Source: a virus. From it: a stretch of 63,965 nt of DNA. The notes under the pieces were generated by a model. It was not told where the DNA came from. It saw nothing but the letters and a program-made list of their open reading frames with translations, and ran no database searches. The stretch lies in UHGV virus genome UHGV-0122909; one strand, given 5' to 3'. The translations under genes and the position numbers were made by a program. Positions 5,443 through 59,588 of this stretch are shown here, piece by piece. Numbering within the stretch: the stretch's first letter is position 1; each line of letters opens with the position of its first letter.

Positions 5443-6819
5443 TCATACGTCAGCCCCTTGTGCATATCGTCTGCCACGCGCAGCAGGTGCATTTGATGCT
5501 GTGCAAATCTGTCTGGCTTCATCCTGGTCACATGCAACAAAGTGTCCGTTGCAGAACCGCTGGTAAACCGTACCAAGTGAGCCAAAACGGTTTTTCGTCA
5601 CGATGATTTCAGCAAATGGCGCGGCGCTACTGTTCTCGTCATATACCGCTTCCCGATAGAGCATGATGATTGAGTCTGCGTCCTGCTCAATGCTTCCTGA
5701 ATCACGCAAATCTGCGTTTGTCGGGCGTTTGTTTGGTCGCTTCTCAACATCGCGCGAAAGCTGACTCAGGGAGATAACCGGTGTTTTCAGGTCTTTCGCC
5801 ATCGCCTTCAGGCTTCCGGAGATGTGAGCAATTGCGAGGTCGTTGCGGTCTGCTTTCGGCTTCTCAATCAGGCCAAGATAATCCGCCATGATGAGTGAGA
5901 GGTTTGGATTTTCCTGTTTGTGCCGTTCTGCGATTGAGCGTATTTCTTCGACCGATAACCGCGAGGCATCGACTACCCATACATCCAAATCTGCAAGCTG
6001 ACTCATGCCGTTAGCAACACGCGCCCAGCCTTCGTCATCCATCGATGCAGGATTTCGCAGTACGCTAACCGACATCCTCCCGGCGTTGGCAATGCTTCGC
6101 TCTGCAATCTGCAATGCGCTCATTTCCATTGAGAAAATCAATACTCCGCGCCGAACGTCAGAACCAGGAATAACGCGGCTTGCAACGCCTTCGGCAATCT
6201 TCAGCGCCAGCTCGGTTTTACCCATACCAGGACGAGCGGCGATTATCACCAGGTCTTCCGCGTTCATCCCTCCGGTGATGGCATCAAGTTCTTCGATTCC
6301 GGTCTTCAGGGTATCGGACTCTTCTCCGTTCCTCAGACGCCTGTCAAGCGTGTCAGTGTAGTCGGTGATGATTTCCCCTAACCGTACAGGTTTAACCTCG
6401 TCACGGGGCTTTCTGATGGATGAAAGACGCTTTACAAGTTCATCCATCGCCTGACTCGATGCGTCGATGGTTCCGCTCTGAATTGGTTCACGCATTTCAT
6501 CCATGATTTCCAGCACCAGACGGCGGTGATAGTTATCCGCGACCATTCCGGCATATCCCTTCAGGTTTGCGGCACTCGGGCAGTTTTTGCTGGTCATCAG
6601 GATTGACGTGAAATGCTCCTCTCCGCACGCCTCGGCAACCATCAGCGCGTCGATTAGGTTTCTGTTTCTCGCCTGCTTCCTGATAACCTCGAAGGCTTTC
6701 CGGTAGAGCGGAATTGAAAACGCTTCCGGCTCAAGCGTTGCCAGAACGTCGCTGGCGGTTGGCGTTAATCCACCAATCAGCAGACCGCCGATAACGCTCG
6801 CTTCGATATCCTGTCTCAT
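5443..6819 (-). CDS. Replicative DNA helicase, DnaB family (in the lambda P position)
   Basis: 458 aa with Walker [13 protein letters not shown] and DnaB-like C-terminal motifs. Replaces lambda P, as in P22-type lambdoids. Confidence 0.9.
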
Positions 6820-33776: not shown

Positions 33777-35081
33777 ATGAGCGAGTATATAGAAATTGCC
33801 TATGCAGCGGCTACACATAGGCTGTGCTTTCTTACAGGCACTGGATTTTCAAAGGCTGTTTCTGATGATAAAGCCCCAAGTTGGCAATCTTTATTGGAGC
33901 AACTGTGCGGTTTATTGAAGGATGGTGACTCACTCAAAGAGGAATTATTTCCTGATGGAAAAGCAAAAGACCTTAGCCTTGAAGAAGCTGCTCAGGTTAT
34001 TGCACTAAAACTTATACTTTCGGGGAAAAATATTTACCAAGAGATTGAGAAAATCATAGCCTCAATCGAACTTGATCCATCAATTGAATATATTCAAGAC
34101 TTTTTCAAAGAAAACACATTTAAAGTAATTACGACAAATTATGACAAGTTAGCAGAAAAGCTGGCTGGAGAGAATCGAACTTGTACAATCACCCCCGGCC
34201 TGCCAATTCCAAAATATAATTGTGAGGTTAAAGTCTACCATGTTCACGGTTCTATAGACTCCCCATCAGACATGGTTGTTACTAGCGAGGATTATTTCAG
34301 ATTTATAAATGGTAATTCTTACTTTTCTAATAAACTAAGCACAGTTCTACATGAAAACACTATTGTTATCCTTGGCTATTCTCTAAGTGACGCGAACCTA
34401 AAGGCTATTATAAATGAATATAAGGTATTTTCACGGGACAACGTAATGTCCTCCAATATTTTCCTTGTTTCCCGAGGGGAACTATTGCAACCTATTAAAG
34501 ATTACTATTTTTCCTGCTATGGGGTTAGGGTTATAGATAAAACAGAGGTATCTGATTTCTTTAGAAAACTTAACGATAAAATTCCAGAAGCAAAAAAAAT
34601 AAAAGACAAATTGAGGCACTCAATCAAATCGGTAATAAAAAACGGAAGAGAGTATAAAATAGAGTTCTTGAAGCTAGAGGATTCTTTTTATCATATCATT
34701 TCCTCCATTTCATCATCTGGATATAGCTGGAATAATGAAAATGTATTAAATGTTTTTTGTAATATAATAGATAAAAAAATAGAGCTTACTAAAAAGCCTG
34801 GCGCATGGGAGCAGTATGAACACCTGGCAAAATGGCTTATTTATTTCGGTAGTTTATTTGAAGTAAAAGGAACCAATTTTGAGAAAAAATACATACATGC
34901 GGTTGAACACTCAATGACTTATATGAATAAACCTTACGAAACAGGCTACTCATGGCGAGCATATCTAGCCTGGAAAACAAAATGGCCTTCACTGACAGCA
35001 TCTAACCGCTCTCTTATTAAGAATGAGATGGAAGATATCCCGCTACAACAGATTCACGATATTGTATCTAAGTTTATATAG
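33777..35081 (+). CDS. SIR2-family (SIR2_2-type) protein, candidate NAD+-depleting defense effector
   Basis: 434 aa. N-terminal SIR2 motifs in canonical order: FLTGTGFSKA (GxG loop), VITTNYDKLAE (catalytic Asn), VYHVHGSI (catalytic His), ILGYSLSD. C-terminal ~200 aa helical region of unknown type. Visibly AT-rich. Occupies the res/mod position of P1. Confidence 0.8.
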   Translation: MSEYIEIAYAAATHRLCFLTGTGFSKAVSDDKAPSWQSLLEQLCGLLKDGDSLKEELFPDGKAKDLSLEEAAQVIALKLILSGKNIYQEIEKIIASIELDPSIEYIQDFFKENTFKVITTNYDKLAEKLAGENRTCTITPGLPIPKYNCEVKVYHVHGSIDSPSDMVVTSEDYFRFINGNSYFSNKLSTVLHENTIVILGYSLSDANLKAIINEYKVFSRDNVMSSNIFLVSRGELLQPIKDYYFSCYGVRVIDKTEVSDFFRKLNDKIPEAKKIKDKLRHSIKSVIKNGREYKIEFLKLEDSFYHIISSISSSGYSWNNENVLNVFCNIIDKKIELTKKPGAWEQYEHLAKWLIYFGSLFEVKGTNFEKKYIHAVEHSMTYMNKPYETGYSWRAYLAWKTKWPSLTASNRSLIKNEMEDIPLQQIHDIVSKFI

Positions 35082-42675: not shown

Positions 42676-45406
<2,731 letters not shown>

Positions 45407-45697: not shown

Positions 45698-46255
45698 TTA
45701 TTCATTGACCAGTCCCGTCAGGCAAAGCTGGCGTTCTTTTTCACGGCGAATCTTTAAACCTCGCAGGGGCACGCCGTTACTGTTCACGAAATCAGGGAGA
45801 TGGTTACACATATTCACCCATTCTCCTTTCTGCGCCCACTTGTGGATGGACGTTTCTACTCGCATGCCTCGCGCTTTGCTGTAGTAGGTCCGTAAACTAT
45901 TGCATCCCATATTGAATGCCGCGCTTGTCATTGCGCTAAAGGCATTATCGGGCATGTCTTTGCCCCGGAAGTGCTGGTTAATACAGCGTTCAGCGATCAG
46001 GATATTCTTTTCCCAATCAGCGGCGATTTGCTGGTCGGTTTTTCGCACGCCCGGCGTTACCCCGTGTGTATTACCAATCCCGTCAGTCCATACACCCGCC
46101 GGGCACATGTATGGGTCACGTCGGCAACCTTCAGCGTTTCCGATAAGCTCAAGCCCCGCCTGGTTGGTTCGCACATTGCCATTACCCATCACGATGGTAA
46201 TCATCACCGCGATAGCGCAAATTGCACCGCCTCCTGCGGCTGTTTTTCCCTTCAT
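45698..46255 (-). CDS. lyz: SAR endolysin (T4 lysozyme-type)
   Basis: 185 aa with an N-terminal Gly/Ala-rich SAR segment (GGGAICAIAVMITIVMG) and the ELIGNAEG...DPY...T lysozyme catalytic region. Confidence 0.9.
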   Translation of the reverse strand: MKGKTAAGGGAICAIAVMITIVMGNGNVRTNQAGLELIGNAEGCRRDPYMCPAGVWTDGIGNTHGVTPGVRKTDQQIAADWEKNILIAERCINQHFRGKDMPDNAFSAMTSAAFNMGCNSLRTYYSKARGMRVETSIHKWAQKGEWVNMCNHLPDFVNSNGVPLRGLKIRREKERQLCLTGLVNE

Positions 46256-46423: not shown

Positions 46424-46912
46424 GTGGCACAACGCGGTGTAAACAAAGTCATCCTGATTGGTACCCTGGGGCAAGACCCGGAGATCAGGTATATACCAAA
46501 TGGCGGCGCGGTCGGAAGACTCAGCATCGCAACGAATGAATCATGGCGCGACAAGCAAACGGGCCAACAGAAAGAGCAAACAGAATGGCATAAAGTCGTT
46601 TTGTTCGGAAAACTTGCTGAAATTGCGAGTGAGTATTTACGAAAAGGTTCTCAGGTCTACATCGAAGGGAAACTTAAAACCCGTAAGTGGACAGATGACG
46701 CCGGTGTAGAACGTTACACGACGGAAATTATCGTCAGCCAGGGCGGCACCATGCAAATGATCGGCGCTCGCCGTGACGATTCACAGTCCTCAAATGGCTG
46801 GGGGCAATCAAACCAACCTCAAAACCACCAGCAATACAGCGGTGGCGGTAAACCTCAGAGCAACGCCAATAACGAACCTCCAATGGACTTTGACGACGAT
46901 ATTCCGTTTTAG
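46424..46912 (+). CDS. ssb: Single-stranded DNA-binding protein
   Basis: 162 aa, GTG start, OB-fold N-terminus and acidic tail DFDDDIPF. Paralogous to the SSB in the lambdoid module. Confidence 0.95.
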
Positions 46913-46953
46913 AGTTAACTTGTGAGTTATTTGTAAAGAATCCATACGCAGGC

Positions 46954-46977
46954 CCCTGTTAATTCAGGGGTTTTTTG
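46954..46977 (+). terminator. Rho-independent terminator after ssb
   Basis: CCCCTGttaattcAGGGG followed by TTTTTTG. Confidence 0.65.
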
Positions 46978-47049
46978 TTTCTATCGTCGGAAAAAGTGTC
47001 TTGTATAAATTGGTGATTTTTCACATAAAGTGTACCTTGTAATTGTGTA

Positions 47050-48318
47050 ATGTTTATGGGGTGTGAGTGCATGGAAAAGAACTACAGAGTTACAACATTT
47101 GTCATGGATAGTGGCGAGCGCTATTGCATGGTAGTGGATCGTGCTTCTGGGCTTCCCATGTATTACCCCACTCTGTTTCTAACAACTCAAATCCGCAATA
47201 GAGAGGATGCTTTTTCAACGATGTTGGCGGCGGCTAACAACCTGGTTATGTTGTTACGCTTTGTAGAGAGTCGCGACATTGACCTTGAGCAGCGGTTTTT
47301 GACCAAAGACTTCTTCAAGCCACATGAGCTGGATGATCTGCGAGATTTTGCTCAGTGCAAACAAAGAAAGGGGCCATTAACTGTGTCCTCTACCTCTTGG
47401 TTGGCCGATGCGATGACCGATATCGTTGATAACGGGACACAGCATTCCCGGCTAACAACGTTTGCCAACTATTTACACTGGTATGCGATGCATATCTTAA
47501 AGACGACAGAACTGGAAGTTGTCGAAAAGATCAATGCTATGGCGGCGCAGATAAAGACGCGCCGACCATCTAAAAAGCGCAGAAACCACGACTTACAAGA
47601 CAGGTCATTGAGTGATGTTCAATTGGACGCGCTATTTGAAGTCATCCAGCCTAGATCAGAGTTAAACCCTTTCTCAATAGATGTGCAGCGCCGCAATCGG
47701 CTGATGATCTTACTTCTGTTTTATCTTGGCATCCGAGGTGGTGAATTATTAAATATAAGAATACAGGACATAGATTTTAGCGCTAACAGGATCCGTATCG
47801 TTAGGAGAGCAGATGAACAAGCTGACTCTAGAACCAATGAGCCTAATGCTAAAACTAGAGAACGGCTCTTACCGTTGGCTGAATCCTTAGCTCAAGAACT
47901 GCATAGTTATATCCTTCAAGATCGCCGGAAAGTCAGAAATGCGAAGAAAAATGACTATCTGTTTGTAACTTACAAGAGTGGACCAACTCTGGGAAATCCT
48001 ATCTCCAAAGGGGGATATCATAAAATTTTTTCCGTAGTCAGGTCTATATCACCGCAATTGTATGCAGCGACAGGACATTCGCTCCGCCACACTTGGAATC
48101 GCAAGTTTTCAGAAAGAATGGATGCCATGAATGAGCAAGTCAGCGAGGAACGCCAAGAGCAACTTCGTTCGTACTTAATGGGCTGGAGAGATGGCTCGGG
48201 AACCGCAGCGACTTACAACAAGCGTTTCATTCGGCAAAAAGGTTTTGAGGCCGCCTTGGCATTACAAGCAGGTAACGGCACTAGCTTGCCAGAGGACTTC
48301 AAGGATGACCATGAATAA
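47050..48318 (+). CDS. Tyrosine recombinase A (phage integrase family)
   Basis: 422 aa with LGIRGGELLNI (Arg), GHSLRHTW (His-x-x-Arg) and AATYNKRF (catalytic Tyr). Confidence 0.8.
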   Translation: MFMGCECMEKNYRVTTFVMDSGERYCMVVDRASGLPMYYPTLFLTTQIRNREDAFSTMLAAANNLVMLLRFVESRDIDLEQRFLTKDFFKPHELDDLRDFAQCKQRKGPLTVSSTSWLADAMTDIVDNGTQHSRLTTFANYLHWYAMHILKTTELEVVEKINAMAAQIKTRRPSKKRRNHDLQDRSLSDVQLDALFEVIQPRSELNPFSIDVQRRNRLMILLLFYLGIRGGELLNIRIQDIDFSANRIRIVRRADEQADSRTNEPNAKTRERLLPLAESLAQELHSYILQDRRKVRNAKKNDYLFVTYKSGPTLGNPISKGGYHKIFSVVRSISPQLYAATGHSLRHTWNRKFSERMDAMNEQVSEERQEQLRSYLMGWRDGSGTAATYNKRFIRQKGFEAALALQAGNGTSLPEDFKDDHE

Positions 48319-49843
48319 CCTCTTACTTGGGTTAGTACCAGAACGAATCCGTGCCAGGGCCAATGGCTACTCTTTTCTGTTGTATGACACATCGTGGACA
48401 TTGGATAGAAATATCACTATTAATCTTGCTGATATTCACCATTACTTGTCAGATGGGACGCTAGATGGCTGCCTGCGTACACTGGCGTTTTATGCATCCA
48501 ATCGTTCTTCTTCTCATACAAAAAATATTCTTGAACGGTTTCAGCACATGCTGCGTGAGACTGACGCGAGAGAAATTACTGATACGGTATTGATTAATTA
48601 TCGGTCGATGCTGTCGCCTGCAACAGAATGGTATCTAGCAACCATCCGTGGCTTTCTTCGATCCTGGCACGAACTGGGCTATCCCGGCATCAGTAAGGAG
48701 GTGAACCGCTTGCTAGATGGCTGGACGCTAAAGGGTAATCGTAAGGGGGATGCGGTTAAGCGCATGGATCCTCAAGAGGGGCCACTGACGGATAATGAGC
48801 TGACAGCGTTTAACGAGGGGGCTGTTCGGGCTTATGAAAAGAGCTTAATTACTATAGCTGAGTTGGCTATAGCACTTGGCACCAGTCATACAGGACGTCG
48901 TCCCATTCAGATCTCGCTGCTTCGTGTGGTCGATGTCCTTTGTGGTAAAAATGGAAAGGGAGAGCCCTTCTATGTGTTGAATGTGCCGCGAGCCAAGCAG
49001 CGCAGCAGCTCTTTCCGAATAAACTTCAAACCATTTGCAATATCACTGGAACTATGGGCAATCCTGAGTGCTCAGGCAAGAAATGCGATTGCGCAGGTTG
49101 AAAATCGTTTGGGGTTTGAATTGCAGGAAGATGACCGGCAGCAAATCCCTCTTTTTCCTGATCTTGATGTGTTAGATGCCGTCCAATCTCCTTATGAATT
49201 CCGCCAACTGCATGCTACCGACAAACTCCACATTCCCGCCGCAGAGATAACCGACACCCTCCAATACATCGTAGAAAAGTCCGACATCCGGTCGGAACGT
49301 ACCGGTGAGCTATTACATATCAATGCTCGTCGTTTTCGTTATACCACAGGCACACGAGCTGCCCGGGAAGGCTTTGGCGAGCTGGTGATTGCGGAACTGC
49401 TTGACCACGCGGACACCCAAAACGCAGGCGTTTACATCAAGAATATCCCCGAGCATGTGAAAAAGCTTGATGAGGCGGTTGGCTTCCAATTAGCACCATA
49501 CGCTCAGGCCTTTGTCGGGGCACTTGTCGATTCAGAGAGAGACGCGCATCGAGGTAACGACCCTACCAGTCGTATTCGGACCGAAATGGGTCAGGGTGTT
49601 GGTACTTGTGGAGAACATGGCTTTTGTGGTGCCAATGTTCCTATTCCTTGCTACACCTGCATGCATTTCCAGCCTTGGCTGGACGGCCCACATGAAGATG
49701 TCTATCAAGGACTGCTCAACGAACGTGAACGGGTGAAAGAGATAACTGGCGACATCCAGATTGCTGCCGTACTTGATCGCAGTATTATCGCGCTGGCAGA
49801 TGTGATCATGCGTTGTGCAAAACGTCGTGAAGAGCTTAGTTAA
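48305..49843 (+). CDS. Tyrosine recombinase B
   Basis: Probable start MTMNNLLLG at 48305 overlapping the upstream stop. C-terminal RRFRYTTGTRAAREG...LLDHAD...GVYIKN is recombinase-like. Confidence 0.65.
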   Translation: MTMNNLLLGLVPERIRARANGYSFLLYDTSWTLDRNITINLADIHHYLSDGTLDGCLRTLAFYASNRSSSHTKNILERFQHMLRETDAREITDTVLINYRSMLSPATEWYLATIRGFLRSWHELGYPGISKEVNRLLDGWTLKGNRKGDAVKRMDPQEGPLTDNELTAFNEGAVRAYEKSLITIAELAIALGTSHTGRRPIQISLLRVVDVLCGKNGKGEPFYVLNVPRAKQRSSSFRINFKPFAISLELWAILSAQARNAIAQVENRLGFELQEDDRQQIPLFPDLDVLDAVQSPYEFRQLHATDKLHIPAAEITDTLQYIVEKSDIRSERTGELLHINARRFRYTTGTRAAREGFGELVIAELLDHADTQNAGVYIKNIPEHVKKLDEAVGFQLAPYAQAFVGALVDSERDAHRGNDPTSRIRTEMGQGVGTCGEHGFCGANVPIPCYTCMHFQPWLDGPHEDVYQGLLNERERVKEITGDIQIAAVLDRSIIALADVIMRCAKRREELS

Positions 49844-49859
49844 CAGGGAGCAATAACCA

Positions 49860-51893
49860 ATGGCTGAGATTTTCCTGTTTAAGCCAAAGGCTACGCTGAC
49901 AGCAGCAGAAAACCTTGAAGCATTCATATCCCAGTGCCGAGATCAATTGACTGTATTCGGCTCTGATCTCACTTGGGAAGATCCTGTTTGGCCAAACATA
50001 ACTGTATTTGCCAAGTTGGGCATTATTACGAGAAAACCCATACTGGAAGAGACGCAAGACCCTGCTTTCATTGATTTTGCCAAAGCCTATTTCCGTTACC
50101 AGCAGGGGCATAGCCTCTCTAGGGCAAAGAATGAAAGTAAAGCCCTCCGTGCGGTTGAGGCGGCTTTGCTTCAAGTAAATGGAAACGCAAATATTGATGG
50201 CCTGTCGATTTCTGTGCTGGATGAAGCAGCTGAATTGGCAAAGCATTACTACTCCGATGGCTCCGCATATCATTGTGGCCGTGAGATTGAGCGGCTGGCT
50301 AAGTTTGTAGCTGAAAACCAGCTTGTATCAAGTGCTGTACAAAATTGGGTCAATCCAATTAAACGTGCAGAGGATAAGAACAAAACGAGCAGAAAGGCGA
50401 AGAAAAATAGGGAAGATAAACTTCCGAGTGATATTGCTCTTAATGCGTTGGCGGAAATTTTTGCCAACGACCCAATTCATGAGCGAGACATATTTACAAC
50501 ATCGGTTTTTGCCATGTTGATGTCGGCACCTTCACGTATTACTGAGGTGTTAGCACTGCCTGTGGATTGCGAGGTTTTTGAAACGGATCGTGAAGGGATA
50601 GAACGATATGGTTGGCGTTTTTTTGCGGGGAAAGGCTATGAGGGTGATATCAAATGGATACCCACCGTGATGGTCGGTATAGCTAAGACAGCCGTAGCTA
50701 GAGCTAGAGTGCTCTCTGAAAATGCACGACAACTGGCCAAGTGGATCGAGAAACACCCGAATAAGTTTTACCGCCATGCTAACTGTCCCAGTGTAGCCGA
50801 TGATGAGCCATTGACGATGAAGCAGGTTTGTATGGCGCTCGGTTTTGCACATTACTCTAAAAAGACGTGCAGGTCGTGTCTTGGTAATCGAGGTTTAGCT
50901 AAAGAGGATGGTGTACATACTCTAAATAGCCTGTGGCAGCACACAATGGCGCGTTTACCGGATGACTTTCCGTGGTTTGATAAAGACAAGGGAATTAGGT
51001 ACAGCAATGCCTTGTTTGTACTGAACGTAAATCAGTTCCACGGGAACAGAGGATGCATACCAGTTGAGTTACATAAGCCAACCAATAATTTCTTCAACAG
51101 TGATCTGACGCCTCGTCTGTCCTTGAAAGGAAAACATGCCAGTATCTTTGATCGCCATGGTTACCATGCTGTAAACGGAGAGCCGGTGAAATTAACCTCA
51201 CATCAGGCTCGACACCTGCTCAACACCATTATCCAGCGCGGTGGCCTGTCAAACTTGGAAATTGCCAAGTGGTCGGGGCGGGCAGATGTGAAACAGAATC
51301 GAACTTACAACCACATGACTGAATACGAACTGGTTGGCATTGCTGAACGCCTTGATCCCACAACAGCGCTATTTGGGCCTGCTGGCGAGGTGGCAAAGCA
51401 TCTGCCCGTGACTATGCAGGAGTTCAATACCTTAGAGCATGCCGCAGTCCATGTGACGGAGTATGGCTACTGTGTGCATGATTACACCATGAGTCCTTGT
51501 GAGAAATTCCGAGATTGCGTCAATTGTACCGAACAGGTTTGCATCAAAGGCGATGATGCTGAAAAGTTGGATCGCATTAAGATACGTCTGGAGAAATTAG
51601 AGCGACTGTTTTTTCTTGCTGACGCAGCAGTGGAAAGTGGTGAGATAGGAACTGATCGCTGGTATCAGTACCACAAGAAAACTGTTACCCGGCTTCGTGA
51701 ACTAGTGGCTATTTTAGAGAATCCAGACATTGAAAATGGTGTCCAGATTAAGCTCCGGGGCAATGATTTCAGCCAGCTTCGCCGTGTTGTCGCAAAGACG
51801 TCTATTGTGGCCATCGAGCAAAAAGGCAAAGAAAGTGAAGAAGCTGTGATGTTAGATGATTTGACAACTTTGTTAGGAGGTGGCCTTGGCTAA
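49860..51893 (+). CDS. Tyrosine recombinase C
   Basis: 677 aa with LTSHQARHLLNT (His-x-x-Arg-His) and NRTYNHMT (Tyr). Confidence 0.7.
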   Translation: MAEIFLFKPKATLTAAENLEAFISQCRDQLTVFGSDLTWEDPVWPNITVFAKLGIITRKPILEETQDPAFIDFAKAYFRYQQGHSLSRAKNESKALRAVEAALLQVNGNANIDGLSISVLDEAAELAKHYYSDGSAYHCGREIERLAKFVAENQLVSSAVQNWVNPIKRAEDKNKTSRKAKKNREDKLPSDIALNALAEIFANDPIHERDIFTTSVFAMLMSAPSRITEVLALPVDCEVFETDREGIERYGWRFFAGKGYEGDIKWIPTVMVGIAKTAVARARVLSENARQLAKWIEKHPNKFYRHANCPSVADDEPLTMKQVCMALGFAHYSKKTCRSCLGNRGLAKEDGVHTLNSLWQHTMARLPDDFPWFDKDKGIRYSNALFVLNVNQFHGNRGCIPVELHKPTNNFFNSDLTPRLSLKGKHASIFDRHGYHAVNGEPVKLTSHQARHLLNTIIQRGGLSNLEIAKWSGRADVKQNRTYNHMTEYELVGIAERLDPTTALFGPAGEVAKHLPVTMQEFNTLEHAAVHVTEYGYCVHDYTMSPCEKFRDCVNCTEQVCIKGDDAEKLDRIKIRLEKLERLFFLADAAVESGEIGTDRWYQYHKKTVTRLRELVAILENPDIENGVQIKLRGNDFSQLRRVVAKTSIVAIEQKGKESEEAVMLDDLTTLLGGGLG

Positions 51894-52305
51894 GCATCTG
51901 GACAATAGAGACATTAATGCCATCGTAAATCTAATTCGAGGATGGAAGGAACCAAAACTGTCCTGGTCAGCAATTTGTGAGGCGGCAGAACCATTGGTCG
52001 GAAAGTTGCCGTCAAGACAGTCCCTTAATGCACATGAGGCAATAGTGACTGCCTATCAAACAAAGAAAGAGGCGCTTAAAGGCCGTGGCCCCAAAAATCC
52101 GCGTCCAGCTAGTTTGAACATTGCAGCCGCGAGGATTGTGAATCTTGAAAGCGAAATCGAAGAGCTTAAGGAAGAGAACCGGAGGTACAAACAACAGTTT
52201 GTGATCTGGCAATACAATGCATACAAATATGGAATGACAGAACATCAACTTAATGCGCAGCTGACAAAGATTGACCGTGAGCGCTCTGATGGAGAAAGAA
52301 GATAG
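51880..52305 (+). CDS. Small coiled-coil accessory protein (TnpC-like position)
   Basis: 141 aa overlapping the recombinase C stop by 14 nt. C-terminal coiled coil LESEIEELKEENRRYKQQF. Confidence 0.4.
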   Translation: MALAKHLDNRDINAIVNLIRGWKEPKLSWSAICEAAEPLVGKLPSRQSLNAHEAIVTAYQTKKEALKGRGPKNPRPASLNIAAARIVNLESEIEELKEENRRYKQQFVIWQYNAYKYGMTEHQLNAQLTKIDRERSDGERR

Positions 52306-52380
52306 TTGCTGAGTACGATATCGAGGGTACATTTCTCTGTGTAGGGGTAGTTATTTACAAAAAAATAGGAGAATAATTAA

Positions 52381-55300
52381 ATGGTCAAACCAAACTGGGA
52401 TAACTTTAAAGCTAAATTTAGTGAGAATCCTCAAGGTAATTTTGAGTGGTTTTGCTACTTGTTGTTCTGTCAAGAATTCAAAATGCCCGCAGGTATATTT
52501 AGATATAAGAATCAATCTGGTATCGAAACTAATCCAATAACCAAAGATAATGAAATTATCGGTTGGCAATCTAAATTCTATGACACAAAATTGTCGGATA
52601 ACAAAGCTGATCTTATAGAAATGATTGAGAAAAGCAAAAAGGCTTATCCAGGATTAAGTAAAATCATTTTCTATACTAATCAAGAGTGGGGGCAGGGGAG
52701 AAAGTCCCATGAACCTGAAGGCGATAAGAACGCTGATAATTATTTGGAAACTGTCGGAAATAGTAACGATCCCAAAATAAAAATTGAAGTTGATCAGAAA
52801 GCATATGAGTCGGGTATCGAAATAGTATGGAGAGTTGCTAGTTTTTTTGAATCACCGTTTGTAATAGTTGAGAATGAAAAGATTGCTAAACATTTCTTCT
52901 CCCTTAATGAAAGCATCTTTGATTTATTAGAAGAAAAGCGCAAGCACACAGAAAATGTTTTATATGAAATTCAAACCAATATAGAGTTCAAAGACAGAAG
53001 TATTGAAATTGACAGACGACATTGTATAGAACTTCTACATGAGAATCTAGTTCAGAAAAAAATTGTCATCGTCAGCGGAGAAGGTGGGGTTGGAAAAACA
53101 GCAGTTATCAAAAAAATTTATGAAGCAGAAAAACAATACACTCCTTTCTATGTCTTTAAGGCTAGCGAGTTTAAAAAGGACAGTATTAATGAGCTATTCG
53201 GTGCGCATGGCTTAGACGATTTCTCTAATGCTCATCAAGACGAATTACGTAAAGTCATAGTCGTAGATTCTGCTGAAAAGCTTTTAGAACTGACCAATAT
53301 CGATCCTTTTAAAGAATTCCTGACTGTTTTAATAAAGGATAAATGGCAGGTTGTTTTCACAACCCGTAACAACTACTTGGCAGATCTGAACTATGCTTTC
53401 ATAGATATTTATAATATAACTCCTGAAAACTTAGTAATAAAGAACCTTGAACGCGGCGAGCTAATAGAGTTATCTGATAACAATGGATTTAGCCTTCCTC
53501 AAGATGTTCGATTATTAGAACTAATCAAAAATCCATTTTATCTAAGTGAATATTTGAGGTTCTATACCGGTGAAAGCATCGATTATGTGAGCTTCAAAGA
53601 AAAGCTTTGGAATAAGATTATTGTCAAAAATAAACCTTCTCGGGAGCAGTGTTTCTTAGCGACTGCTTTTCAGCGGGCTAGTGAGGGCCAATTTTTTGTC
53701 TCCCCGGCATGTGATACTGGAATTTTAGATGAGTTAGTTAAAGACGGAATTGTCGGCTATGAAGCTGCTGGTTACTTCATTACACATGATATATACGAGG
53801 AATGGGCATTAGAAAAGAAAATTTCTGTCGATTATATCCGTAAAGCGAACAATAACGAGTTCTTCGAAAAAATAGGAGAATCACTTCCTGTTCGCCGTAG
53901 TTTTCGGAATTGGATATCTGAACGATTGCTTTTAGATGACCAGTCCATAAAGCCTTTTATCGCAGAAATAGTCTGTGGAGAAGGAATATCAAATTTTTGG
54001 AAAGACGAGTTATGGGTAGCTGTCCTTCTTTCCGATAATTCAAGCATATTTTTTAATTACTTTAAAAGATATTTACTTAGTAGTGACCAGAATCTATTAA
54101 AAAGACTTACTTTCTTATTGAGGCTTGCTTGCAAGGACGTTGATTACGATCTGCTTAAACAGTTAGGTGTAAGTAATTCAGATCTGCTTTCCATTAAATA
54201 TGTTCTTACTAAGCCTAAGGGAACTGGTTGGCAGAGTGTGATCCAATTTATCTATGAAAATTTAGATGAAATAGGGATCAGAAATATTAATTTTATACTT
54301 CCTGTGATTCAGGAGTGGAATCAAAGAAACAAAGTGGGTGAAACGACTCGATTATCTAGTTTGATAGCCCTAAAATATTATCAATGGACTGTAGATGAGG
54401 ATGTCTATTTATCCGGAAGGGATAATGAGAAAAATATTCTGCATACGATTCTTCATGGGGCGGCCATGATTAAACCTGAAATGGAAGAGGTTTTAGTTAA
54501 GGTTCTTAAAAATAGGTGGAACGAGCACGGTACCCCATATTTCGACCTTATGACCTTAATCCTTACTGACTTAGATTCATATCCGGTTTGGGCATCTCTC
54601 CCGGAATATGTTCTACAATTGGCAGATCTGTTCTGGTATCGGCCACTTAAAGAAACAGGCGAACGTTATCACAGTATGGATATTGAAGATGAGTTCGGTC
54701 TATTTAGGTCTCATCACGACTATTATCCAGAAAGTCCATATCAGACTCCTATATATTGGTTACTACAATCACAGTTCAAAAAAACAATAGACTTTATTCT
54801 TGATTTTACGAACAAGACAACGATATGTTTTGCCCACTCCCATTTTGCTAAAAACGAAATTGAAGAAGTCGATGTCTTTATTGAAGAAGGAAAGTTTATA
54901 AAGCAATATATATGCAATCGTCTGTGGTGCTCATATCGAGGAACACAGGTCTCTACCTACTTACTTTCATCAATTCATATGGCATTGGAAAAATTTTTTC
55001 TTGAGAATTTTAAAAATGCAGACTCGAAAGTGTTGGAAAGTTGGCTTCTTTTCTTGTTAAGAAATACCAAGTCAGCTTCTATTTCTGCAGTAGTTACGAG
55101 TATTGTACTTGCATTCCCTGAGAAGACATTCAATGTAGCTAAAGTACTATTCCAAACAAAGGATTTCTTCCGTTTTGATATGAATCGAATGGTTCTAGAC
55201 AGAACACATAAAAGTTCATTAATCTCCCTCAGGGATGGCTTTGGCGGTACAGATTACAGAAACTCTTTGCACGAAGAAGATAGAATTAAAGCTTGCGATG

Positions 55301-57144
55301 ATGTGCATAGAAATACTTATCTTGAAAATCTTGCCTTGCATTATCAAATTTTCAGGAGTGAAAATGTAACGGAGAAAGATGTCATTGAAAGGCAACAAGT
55401 GCTCTGGGGTATTTTCGACAAATACTATAATCAGCTTCCAGATGAAGCTCAAGAAACTGAAGCCGATAAGACGTGGAGGCTCTGCTTGGCAAGAATGGAT
55501 CGGCGAAAGATGAAAATAACTACCAAGGAGAAAGATGAAGGGATTGAGATATCATTCAATCCTGAGATTGACCCTAAACTAAAGCAATATAGTGAGGAAG
55601 CAATAAAGAAAAACTCCGAGCATATGAAGTATGTAACGCTGAAACTATGGGCAAGCTATAAAAGAGAAAAGGATGAACGTTATAAGAATTATGGAATGTA
55701 TGAGGACAATCCGCAAATTGCTTTACAAGAGACCAAAGAAATAATAAAAAAGCTTAATGAGGAAGGGGGTGAAGATTTCAGACTATTAAATGGTAATATA
55801 CCAGCAGACGTTTGTTCTGTATTACTGTTAGATTACTTTAATCAGTTGAATAATGAAGAGAGAGAATATTGTAAAGATATTGTTCTAGCATATTCTCAAC
55901 TTCCGTTGAAGGAAGGCTATAATTATCAGGTACAAGATGGGACAACCTCGGCAATTTCAGCCTTACCCGTGATTTATCATAATTATCCAATGGAAAGGGA
56001 GACTATAAAAACAATATTACTTTTGACACTGTTTAATGACCACTCTATTGGAATGGCAGGTGGGCGCTACTCAGTATTTCCTAGTATGGTGATTCATAAA
56101 TTATGGCTAGACTATTTTGATGATATGCAGTCTCTATTGTTTGGTTTTTTGATTTTAAAGCCAAAGTATGTAATTCTTTCAAGAAAAATCATTCATGAAA
56201 GTTATCGTCAAGTAGACTATGACATTAAAAAAATAAATATTAATAAGGTGTTTTTAAATAACTATAAGCATTGCATATCAAATGTCATCGATAATAAAAT
56301 ATCTATAGATGATTTGGGAAGTATAGATATAGTTGATCTACATATTTTGAACACAGCTTTCCAATTAATTCCAGTTGATACTGTTAATATTGAACATAAG
56401 CAATTGGTTTCCTTAATTGTTAAAAGATTTTCTACAAGCCTATTGTCAAGTGTTCGAGAAGATAGAGTTGATTACGCTCTTCGGCAGTCTTTCTTGGAAA
56501 GATTTGCCTACTTTACGCTTCATGCGCCCGTGAGCGATATTCCCGATTATATAAAACCTTTTCTTGATGGTTTCAACGGTTCAGAGCCTATTTCAGAGTT
56601 ATTTAAAAAATTTATTCTCGTCGAAGATAGATTAAATACTTACGCCAAATTTTGGAAGGTTTGGGATTTGTTTTTTGATAAAGTGGTTACTTTGTGCAAG
56701 GATGGAGATAGGTATTGGTATGTAGATAAAATTATAAAAAGTTACCTTTTTGCTGAATCTCCATGGAAAGAAAACTCTAATGGTTGGCACACATTTAAAG
56801 ATAGCAATAGTCAATTCTTTTGCGATGTATCTAGGACTATGGGCCATTGCCCTTCAACTTTATATTCTCTTGCCAAATCTTTGAATAACATTGCCAGTTG
56901 CTATCTTAATCAAGGTATAACCTGGCTTTCAGAAATGTTGTCGGTTAATAAAAAGCTATGGGAAAAGAAATTGGAAAATGATACTGTTTATTTTTTAGAA
57001 TGTTTGGTTAGGCGGTATATTAACACTGAGCGTGAGCGAATTAGACGAACCAAACAGTTGAAAGAAGAGGTCTTAGTAATATTGGATTTTTTGGTAGAGA
57101 AAGGATCTGTTGTTGGTTATATGTCACGGGAAAATATTCTGTGA
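52381..57144 (+). CDS. Large STAND-type P-loop NTPase with N-terminal nuclease-like domain and ~1300-aa helical C-terminus (Avs-like)
   Basis: 1587 aa. Walker A IVIVSGEGGVGKTAV, Walker B KVIVVDSAEKL, then VVFTTRNNY (the hhhTTR STAND/NB-ARC signature). N-terminal ~220 aa contains ...DNEIIGWQSKFY..., a possible PD-(D/E)xK-like core. Strongly AT-rich. Confidence 0.7.
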   Translation: MVKPNWDNFKAKFSENPQGNFEWFCYLLFCQEFKMPAGIFRYKNQSGIETNPITKDNEIIGWQSKFYDTKLSDNKADLIEMIEKSKKAYPGLSKIIFYTNQEWGQGRKSHEPEGDKNADNYLETVGNSNDPKIKIEVDQKAYESGIEIVWRVASFFESPFVIVENEKIAKHFFSLNESIFDLLEEKRKHTENVLYEIQTNIEFKDRSIEIDRRHCIELLHENLVQKKIVIVSGEGGVGKTAVIKKIYEAEKQYTPFYVFKASEFKKDSINELFGAHGLDDFSNAHQDELRKVIVVDSAEKLLELTNIDPFKEFLTVLIKDKWQVVFTTRNNYLADLNYAFIDIYNITPENLVIKNLERGELIELSDNNGFSLPQDVRLLELIKNPFYLSEYLRFYTGESIDYVSFKEKLWNKIIVKNKPSREQCFLATAFQRASEGQFFVSPACDTGILDELVKDGIVGYEAAGYFITHDIYEEWALEKKISVDYIRKANNNEFFEKIGESLPVRRSFRNWISERLLLDDQSIKPFIAEIVCGEGISNFWKDELWVAVLLSDNSSIFFNYFKRYLLSSDQNLLKRLTFLLRLACKDVDYDLLKQLGVSNSDLLSIKYVLTKPKGTGWQSVIQFIYENLDEIGIRNINFILPVIQEWNQRNKVGETTRLSSLIALKYYQWTVDEDVYLSGRDNEKNILHTILHGAAMIKPEMEEVLVKVLKNRWNEHGTPYFDLMTLILTDLDSYPVWASLPEYVLQLADLFWYRPLKETGERYHSMDIEDEFGLFRSHHDYYPESPYQTPIYWLLQSQFKKTIDFILDFTNKTTICFAHSHFAKNEIEEVDVFIEEGKFIKQYICNRLWCSYRGTQVSTYLLSSIHMALEKFFLENFKNADSKVLESWLLFLLRNTKSASISAVVTSIVLAFPEKTFNVAKVLFQTKDFFRFDMNRMVLDRTHKSSLISLRDGFGGTDYRNSLHEEDRIKACDDVHRNTYLENLALHYQIFRSENVTEKDVIERQQVLWGIFDKYYNQLPDEAQETEADKTWRLCLARMDRRKMKITTKEKDEGIEISFNPEIDPKLKQYSEEAIKKNSEHMKYVTLKLWASYKREKDERYKNYGMYEDNPQIALQETKEIIKKLNEEGGEDFRLLNGNIPADVCSVLLLDYFNQLNNEEREYCKDIVLAYSQLPLKEGYNYQVQDGTTSAISALPVIYHNYPMERETIKTILLLTLFNDHSIGMAGGRYSVFPSMVIHKLWLDYFDDMQSLLFGFLILKPKYVILSRKIIHESYRQVDYDIKKININKVFLNNYKHCISNVIDNKISIDDLGSIDIVDLHILNTAFQLIPVDTVNIEHKQLVSLIVKRFSTSLLSSVREDRVDYALRQSFLERFAYFTLHAPVSDIPDYIKPFLDGFNGSEPISELFKKFILVEDRLNTYAKFWKVWDLFFDKVVTLCKDGDRYWYVDKIIKSYLFAESPWKENSNGWHTFKDSNSQFFCDVSRTMGHCPSTLYSLAKSLNNIASCYLNQGITWLSEMLSVNKKLWEKKLENDTVYFLECLVRRYINTERERIRRTKQLKEEVLVILDFLVEKGSVVGYMSRENIL

Positions 57145-57187
57145 TGTAGTTGAAAATAATAATTTTAATGAGAGCTTTTCCAATTTA

Positions 57188-57212
57188 GGCTCCAGGGATT
57201 GGAGCCTTTTTA
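57188..57212 (+). terminator. Rho-independent terminator after the NTPase gene
   Basis: GGCTCCAgggatTGGAGCC followed by TTTTTATT. Confidence 0.65.
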
Positions 57213-57239
57213 TTATCGAAAAGATTAATATCTTATAAG

Positions 57240-57458
57240 TCAATCAGTAAAACGCAGCAAAGCTCGTTGCTCTTGAATGTTCACTCCGTGATAAATTCTT
57301 TGATTACCACATAAATAACAAGAACAAGCACAAGGGGTGCAGTAAATTTTCCCTACAACTTTTTCAGTTTTAGCCAACGCAATTCGATATGTTTTTCTCT
57401 TAGATTTTAACCGAGATATATGATGACGACGCCATGCCCGATTTCTAACCATTTCCAT
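57240..57458 (-). CDS. Small basic Cys-cluster protein (hypothetical)
   Basis: 72 aa with an Arg/Lys-rich N-terminus and CTPCACSCYLCGN cluster. Confidence 0.3.
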   Translation of the reverse strand: MEMVRNRAWRRHHISRLKSKRKTYRIALAKTEKVVGKIYCTPCACSCYLCGNQRIYHGVNIQEQRALLRFTD

Positions 57459-57682
57459 TCACTCCAATTTTCTACCGCGGTGTTATACCGCGCCCGTATC
57501 AATCTTTGGAGTTCGATATCGATCTGACCTTTCATGAATACCTCGGAATTTATCAATAAAGTGAGTGCTATATCATAGCTTATGGGATGAAAGTTTGATA
57601 TTTAGCACTTTTCAGCTTTAGGTAAAGCTGTCCTCAATAAAGCTAATTTCTTGTTTATTAATGGAATTTCTATGTAGAAGTG

Positions 57683-58504
57683 TTAGAAATCCTGTTTTAC
57701 TTTATCCATCGTTAAAACTTTACTTATTATATAAGGATCATAATTTCTTATACTCATAAGGCAATTTATCAAATTGGAAACGTGGCTATCATCAGGAATA
57801 AGTATATATTTAATATCATCGAAAGAAAAACCAATGCCAAATTCAGAGAATTTTTTACTTAAGACGGCCTTCTGGTTAGGTTCCACCACTCGCTCTAAAT
57901 TTAGGCTAGGCCATAAATCGCCAACAAACGGATGCGGTACATATCTCCATTCTTTTTCGTCAGCGTAGATATAATTCTCAATGGTTTTTTCGTTCGTCCT
58001 TTCTAATTTCCCTTTATAATTTTTCATATAGCGTAATAAATTATAAAGGTCAGCGTACTCTTCTTTAAGGCTTTCAAAATACTTACGCTCTTTATTATCA
58101 AGGATATGCCTTTTCGACCATAGCGGAATTAACGCATCCTTTAGTTTTCTAATTCTTTTATTATACTTTGAAAATAATTCACTGCCTTGATTCATGTATA
58201 GAACGGGATGGAGATCATTTTTCTCAGCCCATTCTTTTGTTAACCCAAATCCAAATTCACCATATTTTCCACTATGATCTTTAATCTGAGAAAGCTTGAT
58301 GTCACAGAATGAAACCATTGGTACTGCGAAATTTCTTCTTCCTTTTACTCCGACTATGCGTTCACGGGCAAGAAATGGTTTAAAATAGAGTTCTGTTAAA
58401 ATGCTATAGAATGCCTCTTCATTTTTAGTAAAGTGAAACAACGTTGTTGGATGTAAACTATTAACTGCTTGTATAACTGTTTCTTGGTTTTCTATAGCAC
58501 TCAT
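57683..58504 (-). CDS. Hypothetical AT-rich protein, possibly abortive-infection-like
   Basis: 273 aa, convergent with the NTPase, strongly AT-rich. N-terminal TLFHFTK resembles some Abi-family proteins, but this is unverified. Confidence 0.4.
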   Translation of the reverse strand: MSAIENQETVIQAVNSLHPTTLFHFTKNEEAFYSILTELYFKPFLARERIVGVKGRRNFAVPMVSFCDIKLSQIKDHSGKYGEFGFGLTKEWAEKNDLHPVLYMNQGSELFSKYNKRIRKLKDALIPLWSKRHILDNKERKYFESLKEEYADLYNLLRYMKNYKGKLERTNEKTIENYIYADEKEWRYVPHPFVGDLWPSLNLERVVEPNQKAVLSKKFSEFGIGFSFDDIKYILIPDDSHVSNLINCLMSIRNYDPYIISKVLTMDKVKQDF

Positions 58505-58910
58505 ATATTAACTGTTCCATAGTGTAAAACCTGACTTAGCAAAGGTTATCATACTAGTCTTTGTACTGTAAGCACACTTGGTTTAATTCCACGCACTTTT
58601 TGAGATTTCCGGTTTTTTGATCTCTTACCAAAATCTATGCCAGATTGAATCAAAGGTCCGAGCTGGGTCACCAAAAAAAGTAAAATTATGCACTTTGATA
58701 GATTATATTTTAACTAAATTCTTTACAGTTAAATCATTTCTTATGCCTTAGTTTCTGATAAAAAAGGTTTTTTTTCACGATTTATAAGTATCAGGTTATG
58801 TGAACCGTTCTAACGAATAGCCCCCCCCGAGATATTGCTTTCGCTGGTGGGAAAACATTCCTGACCCACCTGAAGGCGCAATACATCAGGTTTTAAGCAG
58901 AGGAAAGACT

Positions 58911-59588
58911 ATGAATAACATGACAACGAAAGAGCTTTTGACGGCACTTCCAAAATACAAAAGCCATAAAACAGTTCGCGCCTCAAAAATCAAAGATATC
59001 GAAATTATCGCCCTAATGGATGTGGTCCTTTTTTGCAACATCGAAGTCGTTGAGCCAGAAGGGGTAAAAGTCCATGTTGATAAAATATTTTTGCAAAAAC
59101 ACCGACCAGAAATTGGCGGATATCTGGTCGCTTATGAGGACGGATCTCTGTCCTATTCACCAGAAAAAACATTTGAAGAAGGCTTTAGTCGGACTAACGA
59201 CTTCTTCGAAAATGGGGTATCGCTCAGCATTGAAGGTCACAATGGGGTGACATTCATTACAGCCAGGGACGTAACTATTTCTGCTGGCGGTATCGCTACT
59301 CTACAAGAAGAAATCGACCTTGAAGCAGCCGACTTTTCTGACGCGCTGATGTGGCTGAAGGATGGCAAGAAAGTTGCCCGACGCGGGTGGAACGGCGAAA
59401 ACCAATTCTGCTGGCTGGTTCCTGAAGGACAGTACCCGGCACGAATGGAAGCCATTAAGGGATATTTCCCCGGCGACCTCGTTCCGTATGGTGCTTATTT
59501 CGCCTTAAAAAATGCACAAGGTGTAGTTGTTCCGTGGGTTCCTTCTGTAGGCGACTTACTGGCATGTGACTGGTTTGTAGTGGAGTGA
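58911..59588 (+). CDS. Hypothetical protein with DUF2829-like (Tad2-like) C-terminal domain
   Basis: 225 aa. C-terminal ~80 aa LMWLKDGKKVARRGWNG...PWVPSVGDLLACDWFVV fits my recollection of DUF2829 (GW...PW.PS..DLLA.DW). Confidence 0.4.
   Translation: MNNMTTKELLTALPKYKSHKTVRASKIKDIEIIALMDVVLFCNIEVVEPEGVKVHVDKIFLQKHRPEIGGYLVAYEDGSLSYSPEKTFEEGFSRTNDFFENGVSLSIEGHNGVTFITARDVTISAGGIATLQEEIDLEAADFSDALMWLKDGKKVARRGWNGENQFCWLVPEGQYPARMEAIKGYFPGDLVPYGAYFALKNAQGVVVPWVPSVGDLLACDWFVVE

Follow-up and report, generated by a model that had tools for sequence, protein, structure and literature searches.

A probable GInt carrying the Avs4 defence gene at the 3' end of ssb in a P1-like phage-plasmid

GInts have been described as islands with a ginABCD gene set, variable cargo that starts at the ginD end, a short AT-rich 3' end, imperfect repeats at the borders and circular intermediates, all four gin genes being essential (Bardaji 2017, PMC5385486). 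Six of the 11 GInts examined in that work are inserted where ssb ends, "without altering the corresponding product". Here we analyse a 63,965-nucleotide stretch of viral DNA, UHGV virus genome UHGV-0122909 (the window, by which we mean the whole stretch), and conclude that its positions 46911-58811 (plus strand) are very probably, at odds that we put near 0.9, an intact GInt of the ginABCD type, also called the Tn6571 family, integrated into a P1-like phage-plasmid at the 3' end of its ssb gene. The name Tn6571 reportedly comes from a paper on Pseudomonas plasmids. The repeats in Table S3 of the GInt study, among them CCGTTCTAAT paired with CCGTTTTGAAT as well as GTGCCGTTCT, have the same core as those of the window island (PMC5385486). 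In E. coli, defence hotspot #39, between yjcB and ssb, is occupied by GInts, and the passages of that study on this hotspot class the ssb-yjcB islands as GInts by BLAST to Bardaji's proteins (Hochhauser 2023, PMC10121019). GInts are separate from the related SEs (strand-biased circularizing integrative elements) and are present in 7.5% of Escherichia replicons, as against 0.3% for SEs (Idola 2023, PMC10214605), and one scheme files ginABCD elements, as its Tn6488 and Tn6571 subfamilies, in a broad "Tn554 family" (PMC8865565). The kind of element, its specificity for ssb and its carriage of defence genes are already published, and the island is common, an ordinary find. The literature searched contained no paper linking GInts to phage-plasmids, to P1-like elements or to Avs4, nor any on plasmid-borne ssb paralogues as GInt landing pads.

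The ends of the island were fixed to the base by comparison of empty with filled sites. Its target, the ssb gene of the P1-like backbone (46424-46912, plus strand), matches the ssb of the P1-like plasmid NZ_LR890336 at 486 of 489 nt; of the three mismatches, one falls on the final base of the stop codon, TAG in the window and TAA in the empty site. The island starts at 46911, within that stop codon, of which the element supplies the "AG"; relative to NZ_LR890336 the Ssb protein is unaltered by the insertion and the stop codon alone is swapped. The final codons of ssb (…DDDIPF-stop) form the left half of the attachment site. Of a 7-bp imperfect direct repeat, attL (46904-46910) keeps the target's version, CCGTTTT, and attR (58805-58811) has the island's version, CCGTTCT. 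The backbone restarts at 58812 (AACGAATAGCCCCCCCC…) and matches the downstream region of NZ_LR890336 at 886 of 888 nt, which leaves a complete island of 11,901 bp with the core counted once. A first-pass annotation, made from the letters of this DNA, had taken a recombinase block at 47050-52305 for the probable integration module of an island in a P1-like backbone and had proposed a comparison with P1-like genomes lacking the insert. That comparison bears the proposal out, with empty sites in P1, SJ46, Ro157c2YLVW, MH422554 and NZ_LR890336, and it is what yielded the exact ends; the block is thus absent from some P1-like genomes. The block is the integration module but not the whole island, which at 11.9 kb exceeds that span more than twofold, and the island begins inside the ssb stop codon and not, as had been supposed, after the ssb terminator, the terminator hairpin being island DNA.

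With a slash marking the junction, the empty site reads …GATATTCCGTTTT/GAATGTGTAAAAAACG… in P1, SJ46, Ro157c2YLVW and MH422554, …GATATTCCGTTTT/AACGAATAGCCCCCCCCGAG… in NZ_LR890336, the base-for-base counterpart of the window, …GACATTCCGTTCT/AACGAAAGACAG… in the IncF plasmid pEK499 and …GACATTCCGTTCT/GATTTGTC… in the E. coli K-12 chromosome. The corresponding short-form attB strings are …ATTCCGTTTT/AACGAATAG (NZ_LR890336), …ATTCCGTTTT/GAATGTG (P1, SJ46), …ATTCCGTTCT/AACGAAAG (pEK499) and …ATTCCGTTCT/GATTTGTC (K-12). The left junction of the window is …GATATTCCGTTTT/AGAGTTAACTTG… and its right junction …TATGTGAACCGTTCT/AACGAATAGCCCCCCCCGAG…; set against the empty site of NZ_LR890336, these junctions indicate precise insertion into a site of the NZ_LR890336 type. 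In all filled sites examined at both ends, attL consists of the left side of the target followed by AGAGTTAAC, and attR of GTGAACCGTTCT followed by the right side of the target. The island therefore has the imperfect direct repeats at its borders and the reconstructable empty site (for two forms of P1, for IncF and for the chromosome) that characterize GInts, and its attL overlaps the end of ssb with the product unaltered, as in ssb-specific GInts, around a core that agrees with the published Table S3 repeats.

P1-like backbones come in two forms 3' of ssb. The window and NZ_LR890336 share a short form, CCGTTTT/AACGAATAG, and P1, SJ46 and MH422554 a long form, CCGTTTT/GAATGTG, continued by about 125 bp and then GCGCTTTT(C/A)ACGAA(A/T)AG; by its sequence, the short form resembles the product of a deletion between a pair of att-like (C)CG(C)TTTT sites. 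Two other readings of the right junction of the window, …CCGTTCT/AACGAATAGCCCCCCCC…, namely an insertion accompanied by a deletion of about 125 bp and a footprint brought from an IncF site, were dropped because NZ_LR890336 has exactly that short empty site. The exact short-form junction of the window had no single continuous match in PLSDB or in the complete E. coli genomes.

By megablast, many plasmids of other than P1-like type share the block at about 46886-58817 with the window, at 99.8-100% identity, and P1-like phages match the flanks only; among 50,697 phage records, none matched beyond the flanks. The length of 11,901 bp is identical in the window and in three other copies checked base by base. 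Relative to the window island, the copy in P1-like p20-20P1 has 0 mismatches, that in the chromosome of E. coli AR_451, between ssb and yjcB, has 1, and that in pSD_88, an IncFIB/FII plasmid of Salmonella Dublin, lies between ssb and DUF905-parB-psiB and has 3. Near-identical copies also stand at the end of ssb in an IncI-gamma/K1 plasmid and in the IncY/P1-like mcr-1 plasmid pR15_MCR-1, and one and the same insertion nucleotide is used in four kinds of ssb (chromosomal, IncF, IncI and P1). Of 5426 complete E. coli genomes, 380 have the gin operon, which is found at 376 places on chromosomes and 30 on plasmids; 38 PLSDB plasmids, 27 of them typed conjugative, have it too. A second lineage, with a gin operon just 86-89% identical, occurs on plasmids of E. 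coli, Citrobacter and Klebsiella oxytoca, and at least some of its copies also carry Avs4 and an AbiGi-like gene; more than one GInt lineage has therefore reached plasmids.

Where the targets differ in the 7-mer, the copies also show which version is kept. At attL it is that of the target in all three differing kinds of target (P1 CCGTTTT, pR15 CCATTTT, IncI CCATTCT), and at attR it is that of the island in both differing targets whose right end was read, IncI not being among them. Either both exchanges would take place at the 3' edge of the 7-mer, or there would be a bias to one strand, and three or four events cannot decide between the two.

The P1-like phage vB_EcoM-673R5 carries after ssb, at 6611-6700 of its locus, a copy of about the first 70 bp of the island at roughly 90% identity. 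This copy comprises the left-end motifs and the terminator hairpin and is followed by dGTPase-like genes, with no gin genes; to judge from its sequence, it may be a decayed or recombined GInt derivative, or other cargo on the same left end.

The copies bear on one alternative, in which the island is a passive passenger that entered P1-like genomes by homologous recombination with an ssb-bearing replicon, its copy now being immobile. P1-like genomes recombine readily with plasmids, and the left end without gin genes in vB_EcoM-673R5 means that decayed or rearranged derivatives exist, both of which would suit a passenger. Against it, the flanks of the window island are of P1 type up to the 7-bp core on both sides, as the counts given above for ssb and for the downstream region show, there are at least three distinct right-hand junctions among P1-like backbones (the short form in the window, the long form in p20-20P1 and another in pR15_MCR-1), and copies in hundreds of genomes are identical to the window island in all four gin open reading frames and at both ends. 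We therefore consider passive carriage improbable, and an island that inserted at this site as a GInt remains our reading.

Four co-oriented open reading frames lie on the plus strand where the first-pass annotation had listed them, and a GInt has just this arrangement at its 5' end, with a small gene behind three tyrosine-recombinase-like ones. ginA (47071-48318) encodes an Xer/Cre-like tyrosine recombinase of 415 residues; its longest open reading frame is 47050-48318, and the start at 47071 is that of the RefSeq annotation of identical copies. ginB (48305-49843), which overlaps ginA by 14 nt, encodes a divergent tyrosine recombinase of 512 residues with a C-terminal Cys cluster. ginC (49860-51893) encodes a large protein of the tyrosine-recombinase fold, 677 residues long, whose C-terminal Cys/His cluster is paralogous to that of GinB. 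ginD (51886-52305, with a TTG start in RefSeq) encodes a small accessory protein of 139 residues with a coiled-coil C-terminus, for which no family was found in Pfam, NCBIfam or PADLOC. The 141-residue coiled-coil product with a 14-nt overlap that had been described at first holds if the alternative start, GTG at 51880, is used, but AGGAGG at 51874-51879 makes TTG at 51886 the likelier start, with 139 residues and an overlap of 8 nt.

Catalytic motifs were checked on 73-78 homologues per protein (39-100% identity), taken from 80 related loci fetched with a GinC profile, and on these alignments the catalytic residues are conserved. In GinA, R222, K261, H336-x-x-R339, W372 and Y382 are invariant in 73 homologues. 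R199, K231, R343, R345, H368 and Y377 are invariant in GinB, which is without His-x-x-Arg; the His position, 342, is R, T, N or Q, and the window reads RRFR. GinC has R226, K258, H448-x-x-R451, R474 and Y483 invariant or nearly so, R474 being at the usual place of His-II/Trp. The Arg, His-x-x-Arg and C-terminal Tyr ascribed to all three genes in the first-pass annotation are accordingly present in ginA and ginC, but describe ginB loosely, there being no literal His-x-x-Arg.

Family models gave graded matches. Pfam Phage_integrase was matched by GinA at E=2e-15 and by GinB at E=0.008; GinA also matches Xer-type NCBIfam models, and GinB matches NCBIfam NF041502, "site-specific integrase", at 678 bits. 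GinC itself had no Pfam match at E<=0.1 and no NCBIfam match. It has 869 homologues at E<=0.001, and weak Phage_integrase matches were obtained in 25 of the 30 GinC homologues tested (best 1.5e-6); in the window GinC the corresponding region is residues 441-487, matching the profile's HxxR…Y end. Sequence searches of the PDB with GinB and with GinC gave no meaningful match. An AlphaFold model of GinC built from 79 homologues has a mean predicted local distance difference test (pLDDT) score of 75 and is good over residues 1-457; an earlier model from 30 close homologues (pLDDT 60, below 50 in the catalytic region) was not used. The top 36 PDB matches of the model in Foldseek are all tyrosine recombinases (Cre/Tre, XerH, IntI4, lambda Int), with probabilities up to 1.0 but with marginal E-values (>=2e-3) and low TM-scores.

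A conserved Cys/His-rich module after the catalytic Tyr is common to GinB (C435, C441, C449, C452) and GinC (C538, H540, C547, C553, C556, C561) and is a possible zinc-binding site. The GInt papers examined make no mention of it.

The tie to ssb extends across the family. The order ginA-ginB-ginC-ginD is kept in most of the 80 loci, whose hosts are Gamma- and Betaproteobacteria and a few metagenome-assembled genomes labelled Myxococcota, Desulfobacterium or Edaphobacter. In 61 of the 80, ginA begins some 130-170 bp after the end of an ssb open reading frame. Of 60 loci tallied, 52 have an SSB with the tail DDDIPF, 42 have CCGTTCT as the 7 nt preceding the second base of the stop codon, and 31 have TAG as the stop codon itself, in keeping with a stop codon supplied in part by the element. 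GinC homologues at 39-47% identity are encoded at ssb in many Pseudomonas genomes.

The left end of the island (46911-46979) comprises the "AG" of the stop codon, a motif like ACCTTAGA that here reads AACTTGTGAG, the sequence TGTAAAG at 46932-46938 and a terminator hairpin with a T tract (46950-46973). The hairpin moves with the island into IncF, IncI and chromosomal sites and is missing from empty P1 sites; present in all filled contexts examined and in none of those empty sites, it is therefore island DNA, and it would stand in for the terminator that ssb loses on insertion. Across the related loci, a ACCTTAGA-like motif is found a few bases 3' of the ssb stop, GTAAA occurs 20-29 nt past the stop in 47 of 61 (mean 1.9 on shuffling), two more GTAAA clusters follow at about 70-90 and 120-140 nt, and the hairpin is visible by eye in most. 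The near-direct repeats that the first-pass annotation had noticed upstream of the first recombinase are real: AAAGTGTCTTGTA at 46993-47005 and AAAGTGTACCTTGTA at 47027-47041, between attL and ginA, were confirmed by direct reading and differ by a 2-nt indel. They fall on the second and third of the conserved "(T)GTAAA" positions that precede ginA and are kept in enterobacterial relatives whose Gin proteins are just 75-88% identical. They are not the ends of the island but stand at motif positions conserved across the family between attL and ginA; they are putative accessory protein-binding sites, a putative ginA promoter-operator, or both. A consensus scan found no sigma-70 promoter upstream of ginA. 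At the other border, the AT-rich non-coding right end (58505-58804) is identical in every replicon context up to 58811 and contains an inverted copy of TGTAAAG (CTTTACA, 58721-58727) and a terminal arm, CAGGTTATGTGAA. As in GInts, cargo (52381-58504) lies just 3' of ginD and is followed by this AT-rich stretch.

The assignment to GInts is built on the architecture, the target, the core of the repeats and the label already given in print to the ssb-yjcB hotspot. Like Bardaji's GInts, the window island has a 5' operon of four genes, for two evident tyrosine recombinases, a third protein resembling a recombinase and a small protein, cargo just after ginD, a short AT-rich 3' end and imperfect direct repeats, and it is inserted at the very end of ssb, with the protein unchanged and the core CCGTTCT/CCGTTTT. 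It differs from them in standing on a P1-like phage-plasmid, with copies on IncF and IncI plasmids and not on the chromosome alone, in a repeat of 7 bp as against the 10-17 nt quoted, and in a GinC whose clade keeps R…HxxR…R…Y. With hotspot #39 it shares the target gene and the class of defence-carrying element, and an identical 11,901-bp island is present there in AR_451; the passages of that study on hotspots concern chromosomal ones only and do not discuss the ssb of plasmids or phage-plasmids as targets (PMC10121019).

Several points weigh against the assignment. Published GinC is described as lacking the first Arg (Bardaji 2017) or the RHRY motif (Idola 2023), and the set is kept here; from the sequences, either this GinC lineage differs from published GinC or the published descriptions do not fit this clade. 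The GinC model is unreliable at 458-560, a range that spans R474, Y483 and the Cys cluster, and when the GinA, GinB and GinC profiles are compared by hhalign the expected motifs line up, but at very low probabilities, so that these paralogue alignments served solely as a guide to register. The activity of the window copy is inferred from its intact genes and ends and its near-identity across replicons.

Other classes of element were also weighed. The first-pass annotation had likened the block to Tn554-type transposons and to recombinase-in-trio (RIT) elements, and both are near misses, since three recombinase-like genes with a fourth gene are the layout of a GInt. A Tn554-type transposon in the strict sense, with the tyrosine recombinases TnpA and TnpB and a small TnpC, would, like the window island, have a small recombinase together with one or more larger ones, a small protein as third or fourth product, high target specificity and no transfer genes. 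The scheme that counts Tn6488 and Tn6571 as subfamilies of a "Tn554 family" (PMC8865565) leans the same way, as does the similarity in secondary structure between TnpC and Srap, the small protein of SEs (Idola 2023, PMC10214605). However, Tn554, an element of staphylococci, has two recombinase genes, and the window has three, in an order kept in most of the 80 loci; host and target are also different. When GinB was searched by tblastn against 72,556 plasmids (E<=1e-3), Staphylococcus and Enterococcus were not in the top ten genera or among the 40 matches listed, nor was any other Gram-positive genus among those listed, the presence of Tn554 relatives there being unchecked. No similarity was detected at the level of BLAST or hidden Markov models, and no Tn554-named family appeared among the NCBIfam and Pfam results, a weak negative in that Tn554 reference proteins were not compared directly. 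On balance, a Tn554-type transposon in the strict sense is very unlikely.

SEs, the sister group of GInts in Gammaproteobacteria, are less likely again. They share with the window island a left-end layout of four core genes, cargo, few target sites, gammaproteobacterial hosts and the absence of transfer genes, and the pattern of a target version at attL and an island version at attR would fit a one-strand bias. Their order is intA-tfp-intB-srap, that is, a recombinase, the non-catalytic Tfp, a large recombinase and Srap, and they have a 6-bp footprint, terminal inverted repeats and proteins that cluster apart from GinC and GinD (PMC10214605). In the window, by contrast, the order is small, mid and large recombinase or recombinase-like gene, as in GInts, and no variable 6-bp footprint lies by either end, the junctions being constant across five contexts. 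The predominance of GInts over SEs in Escherichia replicons, cited above, also speaks against an SE (PMC10214605). The sole match to an NCBIfam "gamma-mobile-trio" family scored 17 bits, far below its cut-off of 340; that family may or may not correspond to SEs. Finally, the middle protein, GinB, keeps R, K, R, H and Y.

RITs, compact units of three adjacent tyrosine recombinases, to our knowledge have no fourth gene and no cargo and are bounded by long inverted repeats. Although the window has three tandem, partly overlapping recombinase-like genes and GInt structure has been called "reminiscent" of RITs (Idola 2023, PMC10214605), a RIT is scarcely credible here in view of the conserved ginD, 6.5 kb of cargo, direct-repeat att sites at a fixed target, ssb, and a repeat search that found no long terminal inverted repeats at the ends of the island.

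The cargo of this probable GInt is led by avs4 (52381-57144, plus strand), for a STAND NTPase anti-phage sensor of 1587 residues (NCBIfam Avs4, 2067 bits; PADLOC Avs4) that matches PDB 8DGF chain A, EcAvs4, over its full length (1587 residues, 3625 bits). The cargo protein is the same, and what the present analysis adds is the ssb-specific island as its vehicle; among the related loci, an Avs4 match lies 3' of ginD in just two. The protein of PDB 8DGF senses phage portal proteins, and the Avs4 cargo shares the phage-plasmid with the latter's own portal gene (42685-44394), whose product it may or may not recognise on induction. Two genes on the minus strand follow, a 72-residue Cys-rich open reading frame (57240-57458), annotated as hypothetical in pSD_88 and without a family match, and a gene for an AbiGi-like protein of 273 residues (57683-58504; PADLOC AbiGi, 1.6e-44), which scores 45 bits with NCBIfam AbiGI, under the cut-off of 300. 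No AbiGii partner was seen. As the first-pass annotation had proposed, the island carries AT-rich cargo, the guanine-plus-cytosine (GC) content of the cargo being 32-37% as against about 44-50% in the gin genes.

In the backbone next to the island, the portal gene is followed by pro, a lysozyme gene (45698-46255, minus strand) and ssb, and 3' of the insert lie a DUF2829/Tad2-like gene, an isaA-like gene, an hxr-like gene and a large minus-strand gene. The first of these (58911-59588, plus strand), annotated DUF2829, has a Tad2-like (Thoeris anti-defence 2-like) domain (Pfam 1.6e-22), so that a putative anti-defence gene adjoins the inserted defence island. Elsewhere, a 434-residue open reading frame in a patch of backbone with 34% GC (33777-35081, plus strand) has a SIR2_2 domain (Pfam 2e-23) and also matches PADLOC PDC-S25 (6e-24) and ThsA-like models (9e-18); it is a candidate stand-alone SIR2 defence gene, at a second site of defence cargo in the phage-plasmid.

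How might such an island move? Insertion at one position of ssb despite unrelated right flanks means that recognition must rest on the left half, GAYGAYATTCCGTTYT, which is nearly constant because it encodes the conserved C-terminal tip of SSB, DDDIPF. By analogy with the GInts of Pseudomonas (Bardaji 2017), the island would excise as a circle with an attI junction …GTGAACCGTTCT/AGAGTTAAC…, and excision would restore the end of ssb, …CCGTTTTAACGAATAG. On the same analogy, GinA, GinB, GinC and GinD would jointly recombine attI with any ssb end that reads GAYGAYATTCCGTTYT, and the anatomy of the island suggests that it would bring its own ssb terminator and its own signals upstream of ginA.

The island is without transfer genes, and landing in the ssb of a conjugative plasmid or a phage-plasmid would open a way from cell to cell for it and for its Avs4 and AbiGi-like cargo. 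The F-like plasmids examined have their ssb upstream of psiB, in an area that we regard as the leading region. The presence of identical copies on chromosomes, on conjugative plasmids and on phage-plasmids suggests how the islands move between cells. Whether ssb-specific GInts use the ssb of conjugative plasmids and P1-like phage-plasmids as landing pads, shuttling from chromosome to plasmid or phage-plasmid, on to a new cell and back into a chromosome, is a proposal for which we see the chances as evenly balanced.

Altogether, this analysis turns a block of "three integrases plus hypothetical gene", annotated piecemeal in hundreds of E. coli genomes and plasmids, into a defined element with exact ends, and shows a well-studied defence gene, that of EcAvs4, riding on an ssb-specific GInt. 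With it, the genome of a temperate phage gains a 12-kb defence island, for a total of about 105-112 kb in the related plasmids listed; P1 packages its DNA by the headful, and an enlarged genome may strain that capacity. For GInts, which have no transfer genes, the near-invariant end of ssb, present also on conjugative plasmids and P1-like phage-plasmids, would offer a testable route of spread.

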